IMG/VR virus record: IMGVR_UViG_2609459831_000014
Source of the DNA: a virus
Lineage: Duplodnaviria; Heunggongvirae; Uroviricota; Caudoviricetes
DNA length: 7,257 nt
Direction: 5' to 3' (one strand)
The translations under genes and the position numbers were made by a program. Shown here piece by piece: positions 542 to 5,367 of this stretch (the first letter of the stretch is position 1; each line of letters begins with the position of its first letter). Below the pieces are notes generated by a model, which worked only from the letters and a program-made list of their open reading frames with translations, had not been told where the DNA came from and ran no database searches.

Positions 542-1579
542 TTAACGCTTATCCGCCACCAGTTTGAGCGCGTGTTCCAGCACATTAATGTCTGCACCCG
601 CTTTATGGGCATTTTCACTTAAATAACGCCGCCACTGCCGCGCGCCAGGAATACCCTGGAACAAGCCCAACATATGCCGGGTAATATGACCGAGATACGT
701 CCCCTGGCTGAGTTCACGCTCAATGTACGGATACATGGCGCGCACTACCGCCACCGGATCGGCATCGATATCCGAGGAACCAAAGATCTCCCGGTCTACC
801 GCCGCCAGAATACCCGGATTCTGATACGCCTCGCGCCCGACCATCACGCCATCCATATGTTGCAGGTGTGCTTTGGCCTCTTCCAGCGACTTGATACCAC
901 CGTTAATCGACATTGTCAGATGCGGAAAGTCACGCTTCAGTTGATACACACGCGGATAATCGAGCGGCGGGATCTCACGGTTTTCTTTCGGACTTAACCC
1001 CGAAAGCCAGGCTTTACGTGCATGGATGATGAACATCTCACACTCGCCTTTGCCGGAAACGGTGTTGATGAAATCGCAGAGAAATTCATAGCTGTCCTGG
1101 TCGTCGATGCCAATACGCGTTTTCACCGTCACCGGAATCGACACCACATCGCGCATCGCTTTCACGCAGTCGGCAACCAGCTGCGCATTACCCATCAGAC
1201 ACGCACCAAACATGCCGTTCTGCACCCGGTCAGACGGGCAGCCGACATTCAGGTTGATCTCATCATATCCACGCGCTTCTGCCAGCTTCGCACACTGCGC
1301 CAGCGCCGCCGGATCGCTACCGCCGAGTTGCAACGCTACCGGATGTTCTTCTTCACTATACGCCAGGTAATCACCTTTACCGTGAATAATCGCCCCTGTA
1401 GTTACCATTTCAGTATACAGCAACGTATTGCGGGAAAGCAGACGCAAGAAATAGCGGCAATGTCTGTCCGTCCAGTCGAGCATAGGAGCAATGCTAAACC
1501 GAGAATTCCAGTAAACACCAGTTTTTTCAGGCATCACGCTGGTTTGATTAATTTTTTGTGTTTCATGATTATCGTGCAT
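542..1579 (-). CDS. dusA: tRNA-dihydrouridine synthase A (Dus family flavin oxidoreductase), 345 aa
   Basis: Full-length ORF with Dus-family hallmarks ([32 protein letters not shown]). ATG at 1577-1579, stop TAA 542-544. Alternative internal start at 1532-1534 (MPEKTG...) would give 330 aa. No clear SD before either start. pspG synteny supports the call. Confidence 0.9.
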
Positions 1580-1667: not shown

Positions 1668-2765
1668 ATGGCGTACTATAACATAGAGAAACGACTAAAA
1701 TCCGATGGCACACCACGCTATCGCTGTAATGTGATTATCAAAGAAAAAGGTGTTATCACTTACAGGGAAAGCAAAACATTCCCTAAACATGCTCATGCCA
1801 AAACATGGGGCACACAGAAAGTGATGGAATTAGATCTATATGGCATTCCATCATCAAATGCAGTTGACGGACTTACAGTCCGTGACTTACTACACAAATA
1901 TTTAAATGACCCAAATGCCGGAGGTAAAGCAGGCCGTACTAAAAGATATGTGCTGGAACTGCTTATGGATAGTGACATCTCCGCGATCAAACTATCTGAA
2001 CTGACAGAAAATGACGTAATTGAACATTGCAGGCTAAGAAACAACGCTGGTGCAGGTCCAGCTACAGTTAGCCACGATGTTAGTTATCTTGGCAGTGTTC
2101 TGGATGCTGCCAAACCTGTATATGGAATTAATTACACATCAAACCCAGCAAAAGCCGCTCGTCCATATCTACTTAAACTTGGTTTAATTGGTAAATCAAA
2201 TCGTCGTAATCGTAGACCGGCATCTGATGAACTGGACATGCTCATTGAAGGTCTTCAACAACGATCTACACATAAATGCTCAAAAATTCCGTTCGTTGAT
2301 ATCCTCAAATTTTCTGTGTGGTCATGTATGCGAATCGGTGAAGTATGCCGATTACGATGGGAGGATCTCGATCAGGAACAAAAATCCATACTCGTAAGAG
2401 ACAGGAAAGATCCACGTAAAAAGGAAGGCAACCATATGAAAGTAGCCTTGCTTGGGGAAGCCTGGGATATCGTCCAACGACAACCCAAAAAATCAGAATT
2501 CATTTTTCCATATAACAGCACTTCTGTTACTGCGGGATTCCAGAGGGTAAGAAGCAAATTAGGTATTAAAGATCTGCGATACCATGATTTGCGTAGAGAA
2601 GGGGCAAGTCGCTTATTTGAGGCTGGTTTTAGTATTGAGGAAGTCGCCCAGGTTACAGGGCATCGTTCATTAAACGTGCTATGGCAGGTATATACCGAAC
2701 TGTATCCGAAATCTTTACATAATCGTTTTGAAGAGCTCCAAAGGAGCAGAAATAAGACCTCTTGA
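1668..2765 (+). CDS. int: Tyrosine site-specific integrase, 365 aa, candidate dusA-targeting family
   Basis: ATG 1668 preceded by GAGG (1657-1660). C-terminal catalytic region has the tyrosine-recombinase signature (RYHDLRREGASR with H-x-x-R, then GHRSLNVLWQVYTELY with candidate catalytic Tyr). Divergent from and adjacent to the dusA 5' end. By eye more AT-rich than the dusA/pspG flank. Confidence 0.9.
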   Translation: MAYYNIEKRLKSDGTPRYRCNVIIKEKGVITYRESKTFPKHAHAKTWGTQKVMELDLYGIPSSNAVDGLTVRDLLHKYLNDPNAGGKAGRTKRYVLELLMDSDISAIKLSELTENDVIEHCRLRNNAGAGPATVSHDVSYLGSVLDAAKPVYGINYTSNPAKAARPYLLKLGLIGKSNRRNRRPASDELDMLIEGLQQRSTHKCSKIPFVDILKFSVWSCMRIGEVCRLRWEDLDQEQKSILVRDRKDPRKKEGNHMKVALLGEAWDIVQRQPKKSEFIFPYNSTSVTAGFQRVRSKLGIKDLRYHDLRREGASRLFEAGFSIEEVAQVTGHRSLNVLWQVYTELYPKSLHNRFEELQRSRNKTS

Positions 2766-2767
2766 CA

Positions 2768-2783
2768 CTGTTTATCCATACAG
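2768..2783. promoter_or_regulatory. LexA box 1 (SOS operator), CTGT-N8-ACAG
   Basis: CTGTTTATCCATACAG matches the LexA core CTGT-N8-ACAG. It directly follows a perfect -35 hexamer TTGACA (2762-2767) that overlaps the int stop codon. A -10-like TAAAAA(T) lies at 2785-2791. Confidence 0.65.
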
Positions 2784-2795
2784 TTAAAAATAATG

Positions 2796-2811
2796 CTGTA
2801 TACAAACACAG
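2796..2811. promoter_or_regulatory. LexA box 2 (SOS operator), CTGT-N8-ACAG
   Basis: With flanks TGCTGTATACAAACACAGTA, a close match to the 20-bp consensus TACTGTATATATATACAGTA. Positioned over the predicted transcription start, 16 nt upstream of the dinI-like ATG. Confidence 0.75.
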
Positions 2812-2826
2812 TATAGAGGGACTTTT

Positions 2827-3075
2827 ATGCGTATTGAAATCTGCATAGCCAAAGAAAAAATGACTAAAATGCCAACCGGTGCTGTGGATGCGTTAAAGGA
2901 AGAATTAACCCGACGCATCAGTAAACGTTATGACGATGTAGAGGTGATCGTAAAAGCCACCAGCAACGATGGCCTTTCTGTTACACGCACCGCAGATAAG
3001 GATTCTGCAAAAACTTTTGTTCAGGAGACTCTGAAAGATACCTGGGAATCTGCTGACGAGTGGTTTGTTCACTAA
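2827..3075 (+). CDS. dinI: DinI-family damage-inducible protein (RecA modulator), 82 aa
   Basis: MRIE..IAK...P.GA.DAL..EL.RRI...LSV.....[16 protein letters not shown] follows the DinI pattern including the C-terminal TWESAD-WFV motif. SD AGAGGG 2815-2820. Two LexA boxes immediately upstream. Confidence 0.85.
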
Positions 3076-3141
3076 TTAACACGTAAAATCGGTAACGGCT
3101 GGAAATCATTCAATACTCGCACTATCGAAAGTTCGCCAGCC

Positions 3142-3179
3142 AGCCGCAGCACGTTCTTGCATACGACGTGGCTGCGGCT
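3142..3179. terminator. Interrupted 12-bp hairpin between convergent dinI-like and invertase genes; possible bidirectional terminator
   Basis: AGCCGCAGC(3142-3150)/GCTGCGGCT(3171-3179) plus ACG/CGT with a one-base bulge and 13-nt loop. No convincing U-tract on either strand, hence low confidence. Confidence 0.3.
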
Positions 3180-3218
3180 TCCAACATTAGACAAATAACT
3201 CTTTAAATTGCTTTTAAA

Positions 3219-3782
3219 TTATTTCGTTTGAATGCCAGTAACAGGAAATCGTTTATATAGGGTTGATAGCCCAACGTTATAGATACGTGCAACATAACGC
3301 CGTGATTTCCCTGCCGCTATGAGCGCTCCCATCTGTTGCCACTGCTCGTCGCTAAACTTCGGTCTACGCCCACCAATCCGGCCTTTGGATCTGGCAATAG
3401 CCAAACCAGCTAAAGTTCGCTCGCTATTCAAATCAGATTCATACTGCGCAGCAGAAAGAATATTACGGAAATTATAGCGACCACTTGCTGTTTTCAGGTC
3501 TACGCCATCTGTAATACTCCGAAAATTAACACCTTTTTCGTGCAGATTTTGAAACATCAATAGCGCATGCAGCACATTTCTCCCTATCCGATCTAACTTC
3601 CAGACAATCAACTCATCTCCACTTTTCATCACCGTAATTAATTCCTTTAACACAGGGCGATTAGCTGTTCTGCCACTGGCATATTCTTCATAAATTCGCT
3701 CACAGCCAGCTGACTCAAGTGCAAGACGTTGCAACTCTGTATCCTGATGATTTGTTGATACACGAACATACCCGTAAATCAT
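3219..3782 (-). CDS. pin: Serine recombinase / DNA invertase of the Pin-Gin-Hin-Cin family, 187 aa
   Basis: N-terminus MIYGYVRVSTNHQ carries the catalytic Ser in the YVRVST motif; VWKLDRIGR and a C-terminal helix-turn-helix region (GRIGGRRPK ... STLYKR) are present. Length is typical for this family. Adjacent to an invertible tail-fibre segment. Confidence 0.9.
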   Translation of the reverse strand: MIYGYVRVSTNHQDTELQRLALESAGCERIYEEYASGRTANRPVLKELITVMKSGDELIVWKLDRIGRNVLHALLMFQNLHEKGVNFRSITDGVDLKTASGRYNFRNILSAAQYESDLNSERTLAGLAIARSKGRIGGRRPKFSDEQWQQMGALIAAGKSRRYVARIYNVGLSTLYKRFPVTGIQTK

Positions 3783-3787
3783 GAGTG

Positions 3788-3814
3788 CTTCTCCTGTTGT
3801 AAAAACAGGAGAAG
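3788..3814 (-). promoter_or_regulatory. Perfect 11-bp stem-loop sequestering the invertase Shine-Dalgarno
   Basis: CTTCTCCTGTT(3788-3798) and AACAGGAGAAG(3804-3814) with a 5-nt loop. On the minus-strand mRNA the 3' arm AACAGGAGAAG holds the SD AGGAG, 8 nt before the pin AUG. No U-tract follows, so it is not a terminator. Confidence 0.5.
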
Positions 3815-3850
3815 AGGCGAAATATCACCTGATTCAGAAAAATATTTGAA
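3815..3850 (-). promoter_or_regulatory. Candidate sigma70 promoter for pin
   Basis: Minus strand TTCAAA (fwd 3845-3850) - 17 nt - GATATT (fwd 3821-3826). The -35 overlaps the outer half of the left crossover site. Weak match. Confidence 0.25.
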
Positions 3851-3867
3851 AGGTTGGTTTGGGAGAA
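3842..3867. other. Invertase crossover site, left (gix/hix-like 12+2+12)
   Basis: ATATTTGAAAGG-TT-GGTTTGGGAGAA. The inner half GGTTTGGGAGA is identical, in inverted orientation, to the inner half of the site at 5930-5955. AAACC/GGTTT arms flanking a central dinucleotide resemble Gin/Hin-type sites. Confidence 0.5.
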
Positions 3868-4356
3868 GACTCTGCATTACCTGTTGGGGTGCCTGTTCCG
3901 TGGCCTTCAGCCACTCCGCCTACAGGCTGGCTGAAATGCAATGGTGCAGCTTTTTCTGCTGAAGAATACCCGGAACTGGTAAAGGCTTATCCGACAAATA
4001 AATTGCCTGATTTACGTGGTGAGTTTATTCGTGGCTGGGATGATGGGCGTGGTATTGATGCTGGACGTGCCTTGCTAAGTCTTCAGAATGGAGGAGTGGA
4101 ATCACACACCCACCAGGGACAGCTCTTCAGAGTCAGTGATTATCGTACAAAAGAAATACCAGCATCAGAAGTTATGGGAAGAGGATATATTGCAAGCCTG
4201 ACGCCGGGTGCTGATAGCCCACTTGATTTTGATGATTATTCTGTATCCTCTAATCCAAATGGATATTTTGTCGGGAATCAGAGAACAACAGCATATGGGG
4301 TAAATGAAACCCGCCCACGGAATATTGCATTTAACTATATCGTGAGGGCTGCATAA
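3850..4356 (+). CDS. Silent alternative tail-fibre C-terminal cassette (Sv'-like), promoterless with no own start codon; ~168 codons
   Basis: Frame opens right after TGA at 3847-3849. The track start at 3859 is TTG, an in-frame Leu within K-V-G-L-G-E-D. Product (PVGVPVPWPSATPPTGWLKCNGAAFSAEEYPEL...GEFIRGWDDGRG) is a typical variable tail-fibre C-terminal domain. Stop TAA 4354-4356 overlaps the next ATG (TAATG). Confidence 0.75.
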   Translation, partial: KVGLGEDSALPVGVPVPWPSATPPTGWLKCNGAAFSAEEYPELVKAYPTNKLPDLRGEFIRGWDDGRGIDAGRALLSLQNGGVESHTHQGQLFRVSDYRTKEIPASEVMGRGYIASLTPGADSPLDFDDYSVSSNPNGYFVGNQRTTAYGVNETRPRNIAFNYIVRAA

Positions 4357-4958
4357 TGGATAACGCTGTATTAAATAGCGAGCTTATTGCCACGAAGGCG
4401 GGAAATATTCCTGTCTATAACTATGATGGTGAAACACGGGAATATATTTCCACTTCAAATGAATATCTTTCCGTTGGTGTCGGCATTCCGGCATGTTCCT
4501 GTTTAGATGCCCCTGGCACACATAAGGCTGGTTATGCAATCTGCCGTTCTACAGATTTTAACTCATGGGAATATGTGCCAGATCATCGCGGTGAAATCGT
4601 CTATAACACCGAAACGGGAGATGCCAAAGAAATCACAGCTCCGGGTGATTACCCTGAAAATACAACCACTATCGCACCGTTAACGCCATACGATAAATGG
4701 GATGGTGAGAAATGGGTGACAGATACTGAGGCACAACACGGTGCCGCAGTAGAAGTGGCAGAAGCACAACGCCAGTCACTGATTGATGCAGCAATGGCTT
4801 CCATTAGTCTGATTCAGCTGAAATTGCAGGCCGGGCGGAAGCTGATGCAGGCAGAAACCACCCGACTTAACATTGTGCTGGATTACATTGACGCGGTGAC
4901 GGCAACAGATACCAGCACCGCGCCGGATGTCATCTGGCCTGAACTGCCGGAGGCGTAG
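4356..4958 (+). CDS. Tail fibre assembly protein (Tfa/U'-like chaperone), 200 aa, silent orientation
   Basis: ATG 4356 with SD GAGGG (4344-4348), translationally coupled to the upstream cassette. C-terminus ...DTSTAPDVIWPELPEA carries the conserved Tfa terminal motif. Confidence 0.8.
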   Translation: MDNAVLNSELIATKAGNIPVYNYDGETREYISTSNEYLSVGVGIPACSCLDAPGTHKAGYAICRSTDFNSWEYVPDHRGEIVYNTETGDAKEITAPGDYPENTTTIAPLTPYDKWDGEKWVTDTEAQHGAAVEVAEAQRQSLIDAAMASISLIQLKLQAGRKLMQAETTRLNIVLDYIDAVTATDTSTAPDVIWPELPEA

Positions 4959-5367
4959 GCCATTCAATATCTGGCACACTGGAGGTATCAACCAGCTCCA
5001 GTGCGTCCAGATAATCCAGCCACGAATTATATTGCGCCAGTTCCTCGCCTTTCAGACGACCAATAGCGGCTTTACCGGGCCATTGTTTACTGTTCATGTA
5101 TTCGTTGGCCTGATTAATTAATAGCTGTCTTTTTGACTCAGAAATTTCAATAAGTTCTTCATGCGTGGGTGAAGGAATATCTGCCCACGCAGGCATTCCG
5201 TCTGCACCTGCAATACGTCGCTTACCCTGCGGAGGTGTCGCCATAAACGACTCGGCACGTCGGGTTTCAATATCTTTTGCATCATCAGGCCATGTGCCGG
5301 AATCGCGGTATACGGCCTCATTACCAGCCAGATAAAACGCATTTTTTTTAGCACTGTATTTGTACAT
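4930..5367 (-). CDS. Tail fibre assembly protein (Tfa/U-like chaperone), 145 aa, expressed orientation
   Basis: ATG 5365-5367 lies 1 nt after the tail-fibre stop, with a GGGA-type SD inside the fibre 3' end. C-terminus ...DTSSVPDIEWPTPPAVQAR carries the Tfa motif. Its 3' end overlaps the convergent tfa' by 29 nt. Confidence 0.8.
   Translation of the reverse strand: MYKYSAKKNAFYLAGNEAVYRDSGTWPDDAKDIETRRAESFMATPPQGKRRIAGADGMPAWADIPSPTHEELIEISESKRQLLINQANEYMNSKQWPGKAAIGRLKGEELAQYNSWLDYLDALELVDTSSVPDIEWPTPPAVQAR

Follow-up and report, generated by a model that had tools for sequence, protein, structure and literature searches.

A probable prophage moron cassette with a dinI-like gene behind two predicted LexA operators

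Does the dinI-like gene that follows the integrase gene of this prophage belong to a unit of its own, and is that unit controlled by the SOS system of the host? The question was raised by a preliminary description of the window (the whole stretch of DNA analyzed here, 7257 bp), made from the sequence alone, in which two tandem LexA boxes were read upstream of the gene. The analysis indicates that positions 2762-3179 very probably form a self-contained prophage "moron" cassette, composed of a sigma-70 promoter, two LexA operators, a DinI-like ORF, a 3'-UTR stem-loop, and a terminator, which would serve as a LexA-gated modulator of RecA filaments. Table 1 lists the features of the cassette and its upstream neighbor.

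Table 1. Coordinates of the cassette features and of the adjoining integrase gene in the window
Feature	Position	Strand	Basis and remarks
dusA-associated tyrosine integrase	1668-2765	+	ORF list; Pfam Phage_integrase, E=1e-20; context only
-35 hexamer TTGACA	2762-2767	+	promoter scan; coincides with the left edge of the mobile cassette
LexA box 1 (predicted), CACTGTTTATCCATACAGTT	2766-2785	+	core CTGT-N8-ACAG at 2768-2783; takes up the promoter spacer, directly next to the -35
-10 hexamer AAAAAT	2786-2791	+	promoter scan; spacer of 18 nt
LexA box 2 (predicted), 20-mer TGCTGTATACAAACACAGTA	2794-2813	+	core at 2796-2811
Shine-Dalgarno GAGGG	2816-2820	+	direct reading; ATG 6 nt further on
82-aa DinI-like protein, putative RecA-filament binder	2827-3075	+	Pfam PF06183, E=1.1e-19
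Conserved 3'-UTR stem-loop	3097-3141	+	GGCUGG, loop AAAUCAUUCAAUACUCGCACUAUCGAAAGUU(C/G), CCAGCC; RNA fold z=-3.6
Terminator hairpin	3142-3179	+	folding; right boundary of the cassette

For the promoter, the scan returned TTGACA-18 nt-AAAAAT with 10 of 12 matches. Direct reading together with the ORF list placed the integrase TGA (2763-2765) within the TTGACA hexamer (2762-2767), and the Shine-Dalgarno sequence and the dinI-like ATG (2827) were found behind the boxes, as the preliminary description had it. The -35 thus does share bases with the integrase stop codon, but the overlap is incidental, since the cassette starts exactly at the -35 and elsewhere adjoins unrelated sequence, with different genes beside it in dusA-, ssrA-, and yecE-integrated and in cdt phages. 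It is a by-product of the point at which the cassette joined the int of this phage. The dusA gene lies directly upstream of the integrase (542-1579, minus strand), and a dusA 5' fragment adjoins the same int in phage SKA5. The scan of the window found no terminator downstream of int and ahead of the cassette. Transcripts from int could thus extend into the cassette independently of LexA, and such read-through may weaken the earlier claim of tight SOS control.

The boundaries of the cassette were sharp. Against unrelated phages, the left homology ended at 2759-2762 (39 loci) and conservation changed from 0.96 to 0.63 just upstream of 2762, and the right homology ended mostly at 3169-3181 in other phages. 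The neighbors differed among phage cdtI, CP-1639, and the dusA-, ssrA-, and yecE-integrated prophages. The locus appears as a unit with an autonomous promoter and terminator between otherwise unrelated flanks, located in the tail-fibre/att region and not in the immunity or nin region. The lambdoid morons share the own promoter, the own terminator hairpin, the sharp boundaries, and the variable neighbors in the late/att region; however, they are constitutive in the lysogen, whereas the cassette is predicted to be under host LexA. Of 5426 complete E. coli genomes, 1408 contained at least 80% of the cassette, with up to nine matching places per genome, a count that includes a chromosomal relic described below, and it was found in many Stx1, Stx2, and cdt phages. 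A scan of genome contigs gave four near-identical loci only.

The two LexA boxes are the features on which host control would depend. The pattern CTGT-N8-ACAG matched exactly twice on both strands of the 7257 bp, against 0.09 matches expected, and two of 200 shuffled windows reached two matches. Both palindromes, CTGTTTATCCATACAG at 2768-2783 and CTGTATACAAACACAG at 2796-2811, lie less than 60 nt upstream of the Pfam DinI ORF; box 2 follows the -10 at a distance of 4 nt, and the boxes bracket the AAAAAT element. With a matrix derived from 23 operator sequences, which gives approximate values, the heterology index was 4.9 for each box and 13.6 for the next best site of the window, and the median best site of the shuffled windows had 13.1. 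With the same approximate matrix, known operators ranged from 1.1 to 13 (leave-one-out), the boxes fell in the range of sulA, recA, and lexA, and the common box 2 variant TACTGT... had an index of 2.9. Both sites are 16-bp palindromes, AT-rich in the middle, with an index in the binding range, and they overlap the core promoter; the tandem boxes of the preliminary description were thus recovered as perfect matches with the scores of strong operators.

The layout was also conserved. Both CTG-N10-CAG boxes, the -35, and AAAAAT occurred in unchanged order in 63 of the 66 distinct promoters of related prophage genes, which cover 67-100% protein identity. Within this set, TTGACA was retained in 56 and AAAAAT in 64, and the distance from the end of box 2 to the ATG was 15 nt in 62. 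The inner bases of the boxes varied, giving 11 variants of box 1 and 8 of box 2, and the CTG/CAG cores were invariant. The spacing of the boxes varied from 26 to 29 bp, start to start, which argues against phase-dependent cooperativity. These alignments support purifying selection on the two-operator layout across diverged relatives. Given the strong-operator scores and the conserved layout with invariant cores, LexA very likely represses the cassette promoter, and it is plausible that the double operator provides tighter control. Transcription would start at about 2798, a position covered by box 2. On the double operator, or on the function of DinI-like proteins of E. coli prophages, the searchable literature yielded passing mentions and association studies only.

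SOS promoters with more than one LexA box include those of lexA, recN, ydjM, and the colicin genes. The placement of the boxes in the cassette, one in the spacer and one at the start, resembles that of recN. The cassette geometry, -35, box, -10, and box with the spacing given above, differs from that of the multi-operator SOS promoters. Box counts for recN and lexA are given in PMC8072944.

The encoded protein was assigned to the DinI family. The PF06183 match scored 70.9 bits against a cut-off of 24.2, with residues 16-80 covering profile positions 1-63 of 63, and all 282 homologues carried PF06183. In the phmmer comparison with the E. coli DinI structures 1GHH/7YWA (E=3.7e-13), query residues 1-81 aligned to chain residues 1-79, and ETWESAD+WFV was kept; the motif of the acidic C-terminal helix, TWESADEWF, is conserved. 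The whole-domain profile match and the end-to-end alignment over about 80 aa, including the acidic helix, substantiate the dinI-like gene of the preliminary description. We infer that the 82-aa protein binds RecA filaments.

Two groups of known genes are close to the cassette gene. The chromosomal dinI of E. coli (b1061) belongs to the same family, has the TWESAD(D/E)WF helix, and is preceded by a LexA-boxed sigma-70 promoter, whose box core, CTGTATAAATAACCAG, is identical to the box 1 variant of the Enterobacter/Salmonella-type cassettes. However, it has a single box overlapping the -10 (TTGTCA-17 nt-TATAAA), whereas the cassette has two; the similarity between the two proteins is modest (HMMER E=3.7e-13); and the chromosomal gene, with its own U-rich terminator, is not mobile, unlike the cassette. 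In the Salmonella prophages Gifsy-1, -2, and -3, a dinI homologue leads an operon under LexA control, dinI-antirepressor-irsA (Lemire et al. 2011, PMC3121763). Experiments showed that expression of these homologues depends on LexA and rises with mitomycin C or nalidixic acid (PMC3121763, PMC8072944). They are, like the cassette gene, prophage-borne and located directly behind a LexA-boxed promoter, although the proteins are only 44% identical to the cassette protein and the single Gifsy box lies over the -10 and the transcription start. The Gifsy gene follows the replication genes and has an antirepressor gene next to it, whereas the monocistronic cassette is found at the tail-fibre/att end. 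[quoted passage not shown] These two are the only tested prophage homologues, and they belong to a subfamily different from that of the cassette protein.

Behind the ORF, the stem-loop of the 3'-UTR has the loop sequence CAUUCAAUACUCGCACUAUC, and the loop is kept even in the Salmonella/Enterobacter-type cassettes; the stem-loop may be an RNA element or may belong to a phage attachment-site block. The terminator hairpin of the window is a variant without a good U-tract (CUUCCAAC), and its stem is maintained by compensatory changes; many relatives have a U-tract, the stem being followed by UUUUUCUUUU. This covariation was visible only on folding each sequence separately, and from the alignment of the 3'-UTR, RNAalifold returned no more than the first stem, which is nearly invariant. 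The 3'-UTR was not assigned to a known RNA family, as Rfam gave sub-threshold matches only (CssrB, E=0.05 and 0.16). An antisense ORF of 42 aa (2981-3109, minus strand), with its start codon in the conserved loop, was rejected as a gene, being 6 aa long or frameshifted in many relatives. The SKA5 genome was searched for an in-phage target of the loop, setting aside the opposite strand of the locus itself; one 12-nt and a few 10-nt complementary words were found, none of them in the loop.

Toward its 3' end, between about 3018 and about 3170, the cassette matches the sequence that separates ykgJ and ecpE, and nearly all E. coli chromosomes carry a relic of the 3'-UTR behind the ecp fimbrial operon. 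In this relic, the 3'-UTR is about 95% identical, whereas the coding part is about 75% identical with indels. STEC prophages are reported to contain a 309-bp block homologous to ykgJ/ecpE that includes a 96-bp att site, att-in-PP_2 (Nakamura et al. 2021, PMC8112680), and an extent of 307 bp in an O111 prophage fits the length of this block. The authors infer a movement of the block from the chromosome to the phage and leave dinI unmentioned (PMC8112680). Since the copy in the chromosome is a dinI-like pseudogene, decayed and truncated at its 5' end, the opposite direction is suggested, at least for this part. Among ecpE-ykgJ loci, a spread search for interrupted copies yielded no usable example.

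Different readings of the promoter and of the downstream region were weighed against the LexA-gated cassette. If only box 2 were a working operator, box 1 would be a duplication relic or be conserved merely as a promoter spacer, as might be expected from the single boxes of Gifsy-1 and chromosomal dinI and from box 1 itself, which departs from CTGT more often (CTGG in 14 of the 66 promoters) and is lost in a few copies. We consider this reading improbable, since the approximate heterology index is equal for both boxes, the CTG/CAG cores of box 1 persist through all its variants, including the wholly different inner sequence CTGTATAAATAACCAG, and promoter spacers are normally free of sequence constraint. 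It is hardly credible that both palindromes are chance or structural features not bound by LexA, with the gene constitutive or under phage regulators. The mEp460 GenBank record does annotate a promoter only, and no operator, at the locus; however, the sites exceed the number expected by chance, match the consensus well, keep their position among relatives, and lie upstream of a gene of a classic SOS family.

The protein itself could be part of a prophage induction switch, as an antirepressor or its partner, on the model of 186 Tum, with its DinI-like C-terminal half, or of the Gifsy operon, given that DinI domains accompany antirepressor modules under LexA control in 186, PSP3, Fels-2, and Gifsy phages (PMC3121763). 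This is very unlikely for a bare DinI domain (Pfam residues 16-80) encoded outside the immunity and nin regions: the cassette has no fused or co-transcribed antirepressor ORF of the 186 Tum or Gifsy GfoA type, the plus strand holds no ORF of at least 20 aa from the stop codon (3076 onward) to the convergent invertase gene, and the whole phage SKA5 has a CI-type repressor of 216 aa. Selection might instead act chiefly on the downstream DNA or RNA and not on the protein, either as the att-in-PP_2 block or as a DinR-like small RNA from the 3'-UTR, made damage-inducible by the LexA promoter. The 309-bp prophage block with its att site (PMC8112680), the Klebsiella DinR precedent (PMC10907235), the better preservation of the 3'-UTR than of the coding part in the chromosomal relic, and a loop conserved above the sequence just past the stop codon in distant cassettes all point that way. 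We nevertheless give this explanation a low probability, as more than 200 loci have an intact ORF, with one stop-codon exception, the stem-loop shows almost no covariation, SKA5 offers no convincing target complementarity, the Rfam match is absent, and some cassettes are wholly without this 3'-UTR.

For the LexA-gated cassette, the arrangement of its parts suggests the following course of events. In an undamaged lysogen, LexA dimers would occupy box 1, in the spacer next to the -35, as well as box 2, which spans the transcription start, and the two bound dimers would jointly block RNA polymerase binding and open-complex formation. Upon DNA damage, RecA filaments would lead to LexA self-cleavage, both operators would clear, and the strong promoter would fire. 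The 82-aa product would then bind RecA filaments through its acidic C-terminal helix, like E. coli DinI, and would alter filament stability and co-protease activity. The preliminary description proposed that the element may use this gene to adjust the SOS response of the host and, through it, the induction of the element itself. This is a speculative extension of the scheme, and one that finds no backing in the Gifsy-1 and Gifsy-3 deletions.

We regard it as doubtful that the cassette is more than a spare dinI copy, acting through a damage-inducible small RNA from the 3'-UTR and/or as a multi-copy, dose-dependent brake on the RecA co-protease. By analogy with Klebsiella DinR, the stem-loop at 3097-3141 and the terminator hairpin could be released from the LexA-gated transcript as such an RNA. 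The multi-copy brake, if true, would set the induction threshold of co-resident prophages, Shiga-toxin prophages included.

The observation is real, well supported, and ordinary: the cassette is a well-conserved accessory gene of a usual type, very probably inducible by DNA damage, and not a new kind of system. As a conserved and clear-cut case of regulation along known lines, it is of use chiefly in annotation, as the LexA boxes carry no annotation in the database records inspected. If LexA control is confirmed, the cassette adds SOS-inducible RecA-modulator genes to the single dinI of the host, and this could bear on the strength with which antibiotics or DNA damage induce toxin-carrying prophages, as well as on SOS mutagenesis.

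By its ORF list and Pfam matches, the window spans the dusA region of an E. coli chromosome and the left end of a prophage. Escherichia phage SKA5 is 99.4% identical to it across 2700-3220 and combines lambdoid regulatory genes (a 216-aa cI, Q, and ymfL/ymfM) with a myovirus tail. The int-dinI pair of SKA5 adjoins a phage-borne dusA 5' fragment, i.e., attP; this fragment comprises 123 nt (L002 4758-4880) and restores dusA upon integration. In the window, 89 bp separate the start of int from the start codon of dusA (1579-1668), and int transcription is directed away from attL. As attP lies upstream of int, the prophage-state int is separated from the phage early operon and must own a promoter; scoring of the window with the heterology index gave no LexA-like site at 1579-1668, upstream of int.

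Features of the window around the dinI-like gene
Feature	Position	Strand	Remark
pspG and dusA		minus	first genes in the window
dusA-type tyrosine integrase (int)	1668-2765	+	
LexA box 1	2768-2783		CTGTTTATCCATACAG; direct reading
LexA box 2	2796-2811		CTGTATACAAACACAG; direct reading
Shine-Dalgarno GAGGG	2816-2820		6 nt 5' of the ATG at 2827
DinI-family ORF	2827-3075	+	82 aa
DNA invertase, Pin/Gin-type	3219-3782	minus	convergent with the dinI cassette
Invertible tail-fibre segment, then Mu/P2-like baseplate genes	after the invertase		

The preliminary description placed a dinI-like gene under two tandem LexA boxes, with a -35 overlapping the integrase stop codon, and direct reading of the sequence located all the elements it listed; TTGACA (2762-2767) includes the TGA of int (2763-2765). 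The motif CTGT-N8-ACAG occurs in the window only at the two boxes, against 0.09 occurrences expected, and a relaxed CTG-N10-CAG search of the window resulted in just two further sites, both unrelated. A consensus promoter scan paired TTGACA with AAAAAT (2786-2791) at 10 of 12 matches and a spacer of 18 nt, so that box 1 fills the spacer; box 2 begins 4 nt past the -10 and spans the expected transcription start, predicted near 2798. The heterology-index matrix is a reconstruction based on 23 E. coli operator sequences, and its values are approximate; both boxes scored 4.9, comparable to the sulA, recA, and lexA operators (leave-one-out). No other site in the window did better than 13.6, and the median best site of shuffled windows was 13.1. 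No terminator-like site was detected between int and the cassette (2762-3179, from the promoter to the terminator hairpin) by the window scan, so read-through from int, independent of LexA, is possible.

For the conservation analysis, loci encoding protein relatives (67-100% identity) were collected from IMG/VR, GenBank phages, and genomes, yielding 66 distinct upstream regions. Of these regions, 63 carry both CTG-N10-CAG boxes in the order -35, box 1, AAAAAT, box 2, 15 nt, and ATG; in the three exceptions one or both boxes are lost, and two of the three also have an altered protein N-terminus. The regions comprise 11 sequence variants of box 1 and eight of box 2, some with very different inner sequences (CTGTATAAATAACCAG, CTGGTTATCCATACAG, and CTGTACATAACTACAG); the CTG/CAG cores persist across them, with TTGACA in 56/66 and AAAAAT in 64/66. 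Among 33 representatives less than 96% identical, column conservation over 2762-2811 was 0.91-0.96, equal to the ORF level, and fell to 0.63 directly upstream. The start-to-start spacing of the boxes is 28 bp (n = 49), 29 bp (n = 14), 26 bp (n = 2), or 27 bp (n = 1). Helical phasing is thus not fixed, and this variation argues for two LexA dimers bound independently and against a cooperative pair in strict phase.

The similarity of the Stx1, Stx2c, cdtI, 2H10, and CP-1639 phages to the window starts at 2759-2762, exactly at the -35, and stops at about 3170-3183. Over the 210 loci compared, the non-truncated left ends of homology cluster at 2759-2762 (39 loci) and the right ends at 3169-3181; smaller groups of right ends fall at 3145-3149 or on the stop codon. 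Upstream of the cassette stand the dusA-type int in the window, mEp460, and SKA5, a divergent small ORF and a different int in phage cdtI, an ssrA junction in CP-1639 and an O157-like strain, and a yecE junction in one other strain; the 3' neighbours are highly diverse, including an invertase, tail fibres, T3SS effectors, and cdt genes. The cassette is a mobile unit, packaged as a moron, i.e., an autonomous promoter-gene-terminator insertion. In the phage family of the window, the dusA-type int runs into it and stops at the TGA inside TTGACA or, in one variant, at a TAA inside TTAACA. Since other phages join the cassette at the -35 to different neighbours, the sharing of bases between the -35 and the int stop codon is an incidental junction artefact.

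The 82-aa protein matched Pfam DinI (E = 1.1e-19) and could be aligned over its full length to E. coli DinI (PDB 1GHH, 7YWA; E = 3.7e-13), the C-terminal ETWESAD(D/E)WFV helix included. PF06183 was found in all homologues listed, mostly of 82 aa, and identity to the Gifsy-1 DinI homologue was only 44%. We infer RecA binding by this protein solely from its family membership. Some E. coli genomes encode DinI-like proteins of 108-112 aa (P0001-P0003) in which an internal segment of about 30 residues is duplicated in tandem.

The K-12 chromosomal dinI promoter (TTGTCA-17 nt-TATAAA) has a single box (ACCTGTATAAATAACCAGTA) over the -10; in the promoter region compared (L214, NC_000913.3, 1489-1560, minus strand), the box CTGTATAAATAACCAG is followed by TATATTCAACAG. 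The Enterobacter-type cassette promoter (cf. the L175 upstream region) has two boxes, reading CTGTATAAATAACCAG-TTAAAAATAA-CTGTATATTCAACCAG, and the K-12 promoter resembles it minus 13 nt, a deletion that takes out both the -10 and box 2's CTG; from this likeness, the chromosomal and prophage dinI promoters are probably homologous. The Gifsy-1 dinI homologue also has a single box (TACTGTGTTTATATACAGTG) over the -10; the gene lies downstream of replication genes, and an antirepressor gene is next. Lemire et al. demonstrated that the Gifsy dinI operon is under LexA-dependent control (PMC3121763), and a Salmonella SOS survey reported 4.6- to 23-fold induction of the Gifsy homologues, with one box each, by nalidixic acid (PMC8072944). 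In the literature that could be searched, neither an account of the two-box promoter nor a functional study of the 82-aa subfamily of E. coli was found; what there is consists of brief mentions and of association studies. In the GenBank record of mEp460, the promoter is annotated and the operators are not.

At the 3' end, the RNA 3070-3225 folds into two hairpins better than shuffled controls (z = -3.6). Folding across relatives showed that the distal hairpin (3142-3179) is retained in almost every variant via compensatory changes (stem pairs CCGCAGC/GCUGCGG, CCGUGGC/GCUACGG, CCGCGGU/ACCGC.., CCGCCGC/GCGGCGG, and CUGCAGC/GCUGCAG), and in many relatives UUUUUCUUUU follows it, which makes it an intrinsic terminator. 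The variant of the window, common to 38 loci, has a poor U-tract (CUUCCAAC). Because the invertase is convergent with the cassette and only this hairpin separates them, SOS-induced transcription could run antisense into the invertase. Window 3219-5367 is a predicted invertible segment switching host range; next to the invertase, alternative genes for the tail-fibre C-terminus and for assembly occupy the two strands, at 3859-4958 (+) and 4930-5367 (minus).

The proximal stem-loop (3097-3141) shows almost no covariation; its loop CAUUCAAUACUCGCACUAUC is nearly invariant and is kept even in Salmonella/Enterobacter-type cassettes whose sequence has diverged just past the stop codon. The loop is complementary to the Shine-Dalgarno-plus-AUG-like string GAGUAUUGAAUG. 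No target-like complementarity to it was found in phage SKA5, and no Rfam family was found for the stem-loop. An antisense 42-aa ORF starting in the loop was not conserved and was dropped. The stem-loop may act as a small RNA, as Klebsiella DinR does, or may belong to a phage attachment site.

Of 5426 complete E. coli genomes, 5245 carry between ecpE and ykgJ an unannotated counterpart, about 86% identical, to the final 58 nt of the ORF and the 3'-UTR (window 3018-3169; e.g., REL606, NC_012967.1, L090 3001-3152). By alignment, this relic is a 5'-truncated dinI-like pseudogene without promoter or LexA boxes, decayed to about 75% identity in the coding part, with indels (deletions), and about 95% identical in the 3'-UTR. 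It immediately follows the ecp fimbrial operon, shares its orientation, and might act as a terminator or 3'-UTR of that operon. Nakamura et al. described a 309-bp ykgJ/ecpE-like block in STEC prophages that holds the 96-bp secondary attachment site att-in-PP_2, and inferred a chromosomal origin, i.e., transfer from chromosome to phage, without mention of dinI (PMC8112680). This block overlaps the 3' part of the dinI cassette (window ~3018-3180). That the chromosomal copy is a dinI pseudogene suggests the opposite direction, from phage to chromosome, at least where the block consists of dinI sequence. In a PPompW/Stx2a nested prophage record, about 240 nt separate the junction of the inner phage from the dinI of the outer phage, which is downstream of it, so some phages have attachment-site-like sequences on both sides of the cassette. 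The conserved 3'-UTR element, together with the chromosomal relic, is the most interesting loose end.

The sequence anatomy, its conservation, and the family membership are observed directly. In the most likely mechanism, LexA would sit on both operators in the lysogen, RecA-stimulated LexA cleavage would free the near-consensus promoter, a monocistronic mRNA starting at the predicted site would terminate at the hairpin, and the DinI-like protein would bind RecA filaments. The product may stabilise these filaments and prolong the signal, or it may instead damp co-protease activity, which would shield CI-type repressors and restrict the processing of UmuD. The host phage has a CI-type repressor, so that induction might in principle be influenced in turn by either of these effects, as the preliminary description supposed. 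Such feedback is speculation, and the sole related experiment was negative: non-polar deletions of the dinI homologues of the Gifsy prophages did not significantly change induction (Lemire et al., PMC3121763). The preliminary observation is real, and its regulatory reading is sound. As a prophage-borne dinI homologue with SOS boxes, the cassette is a well-conserved case of a logic already known, and its two-operator geometry is a minor variation.
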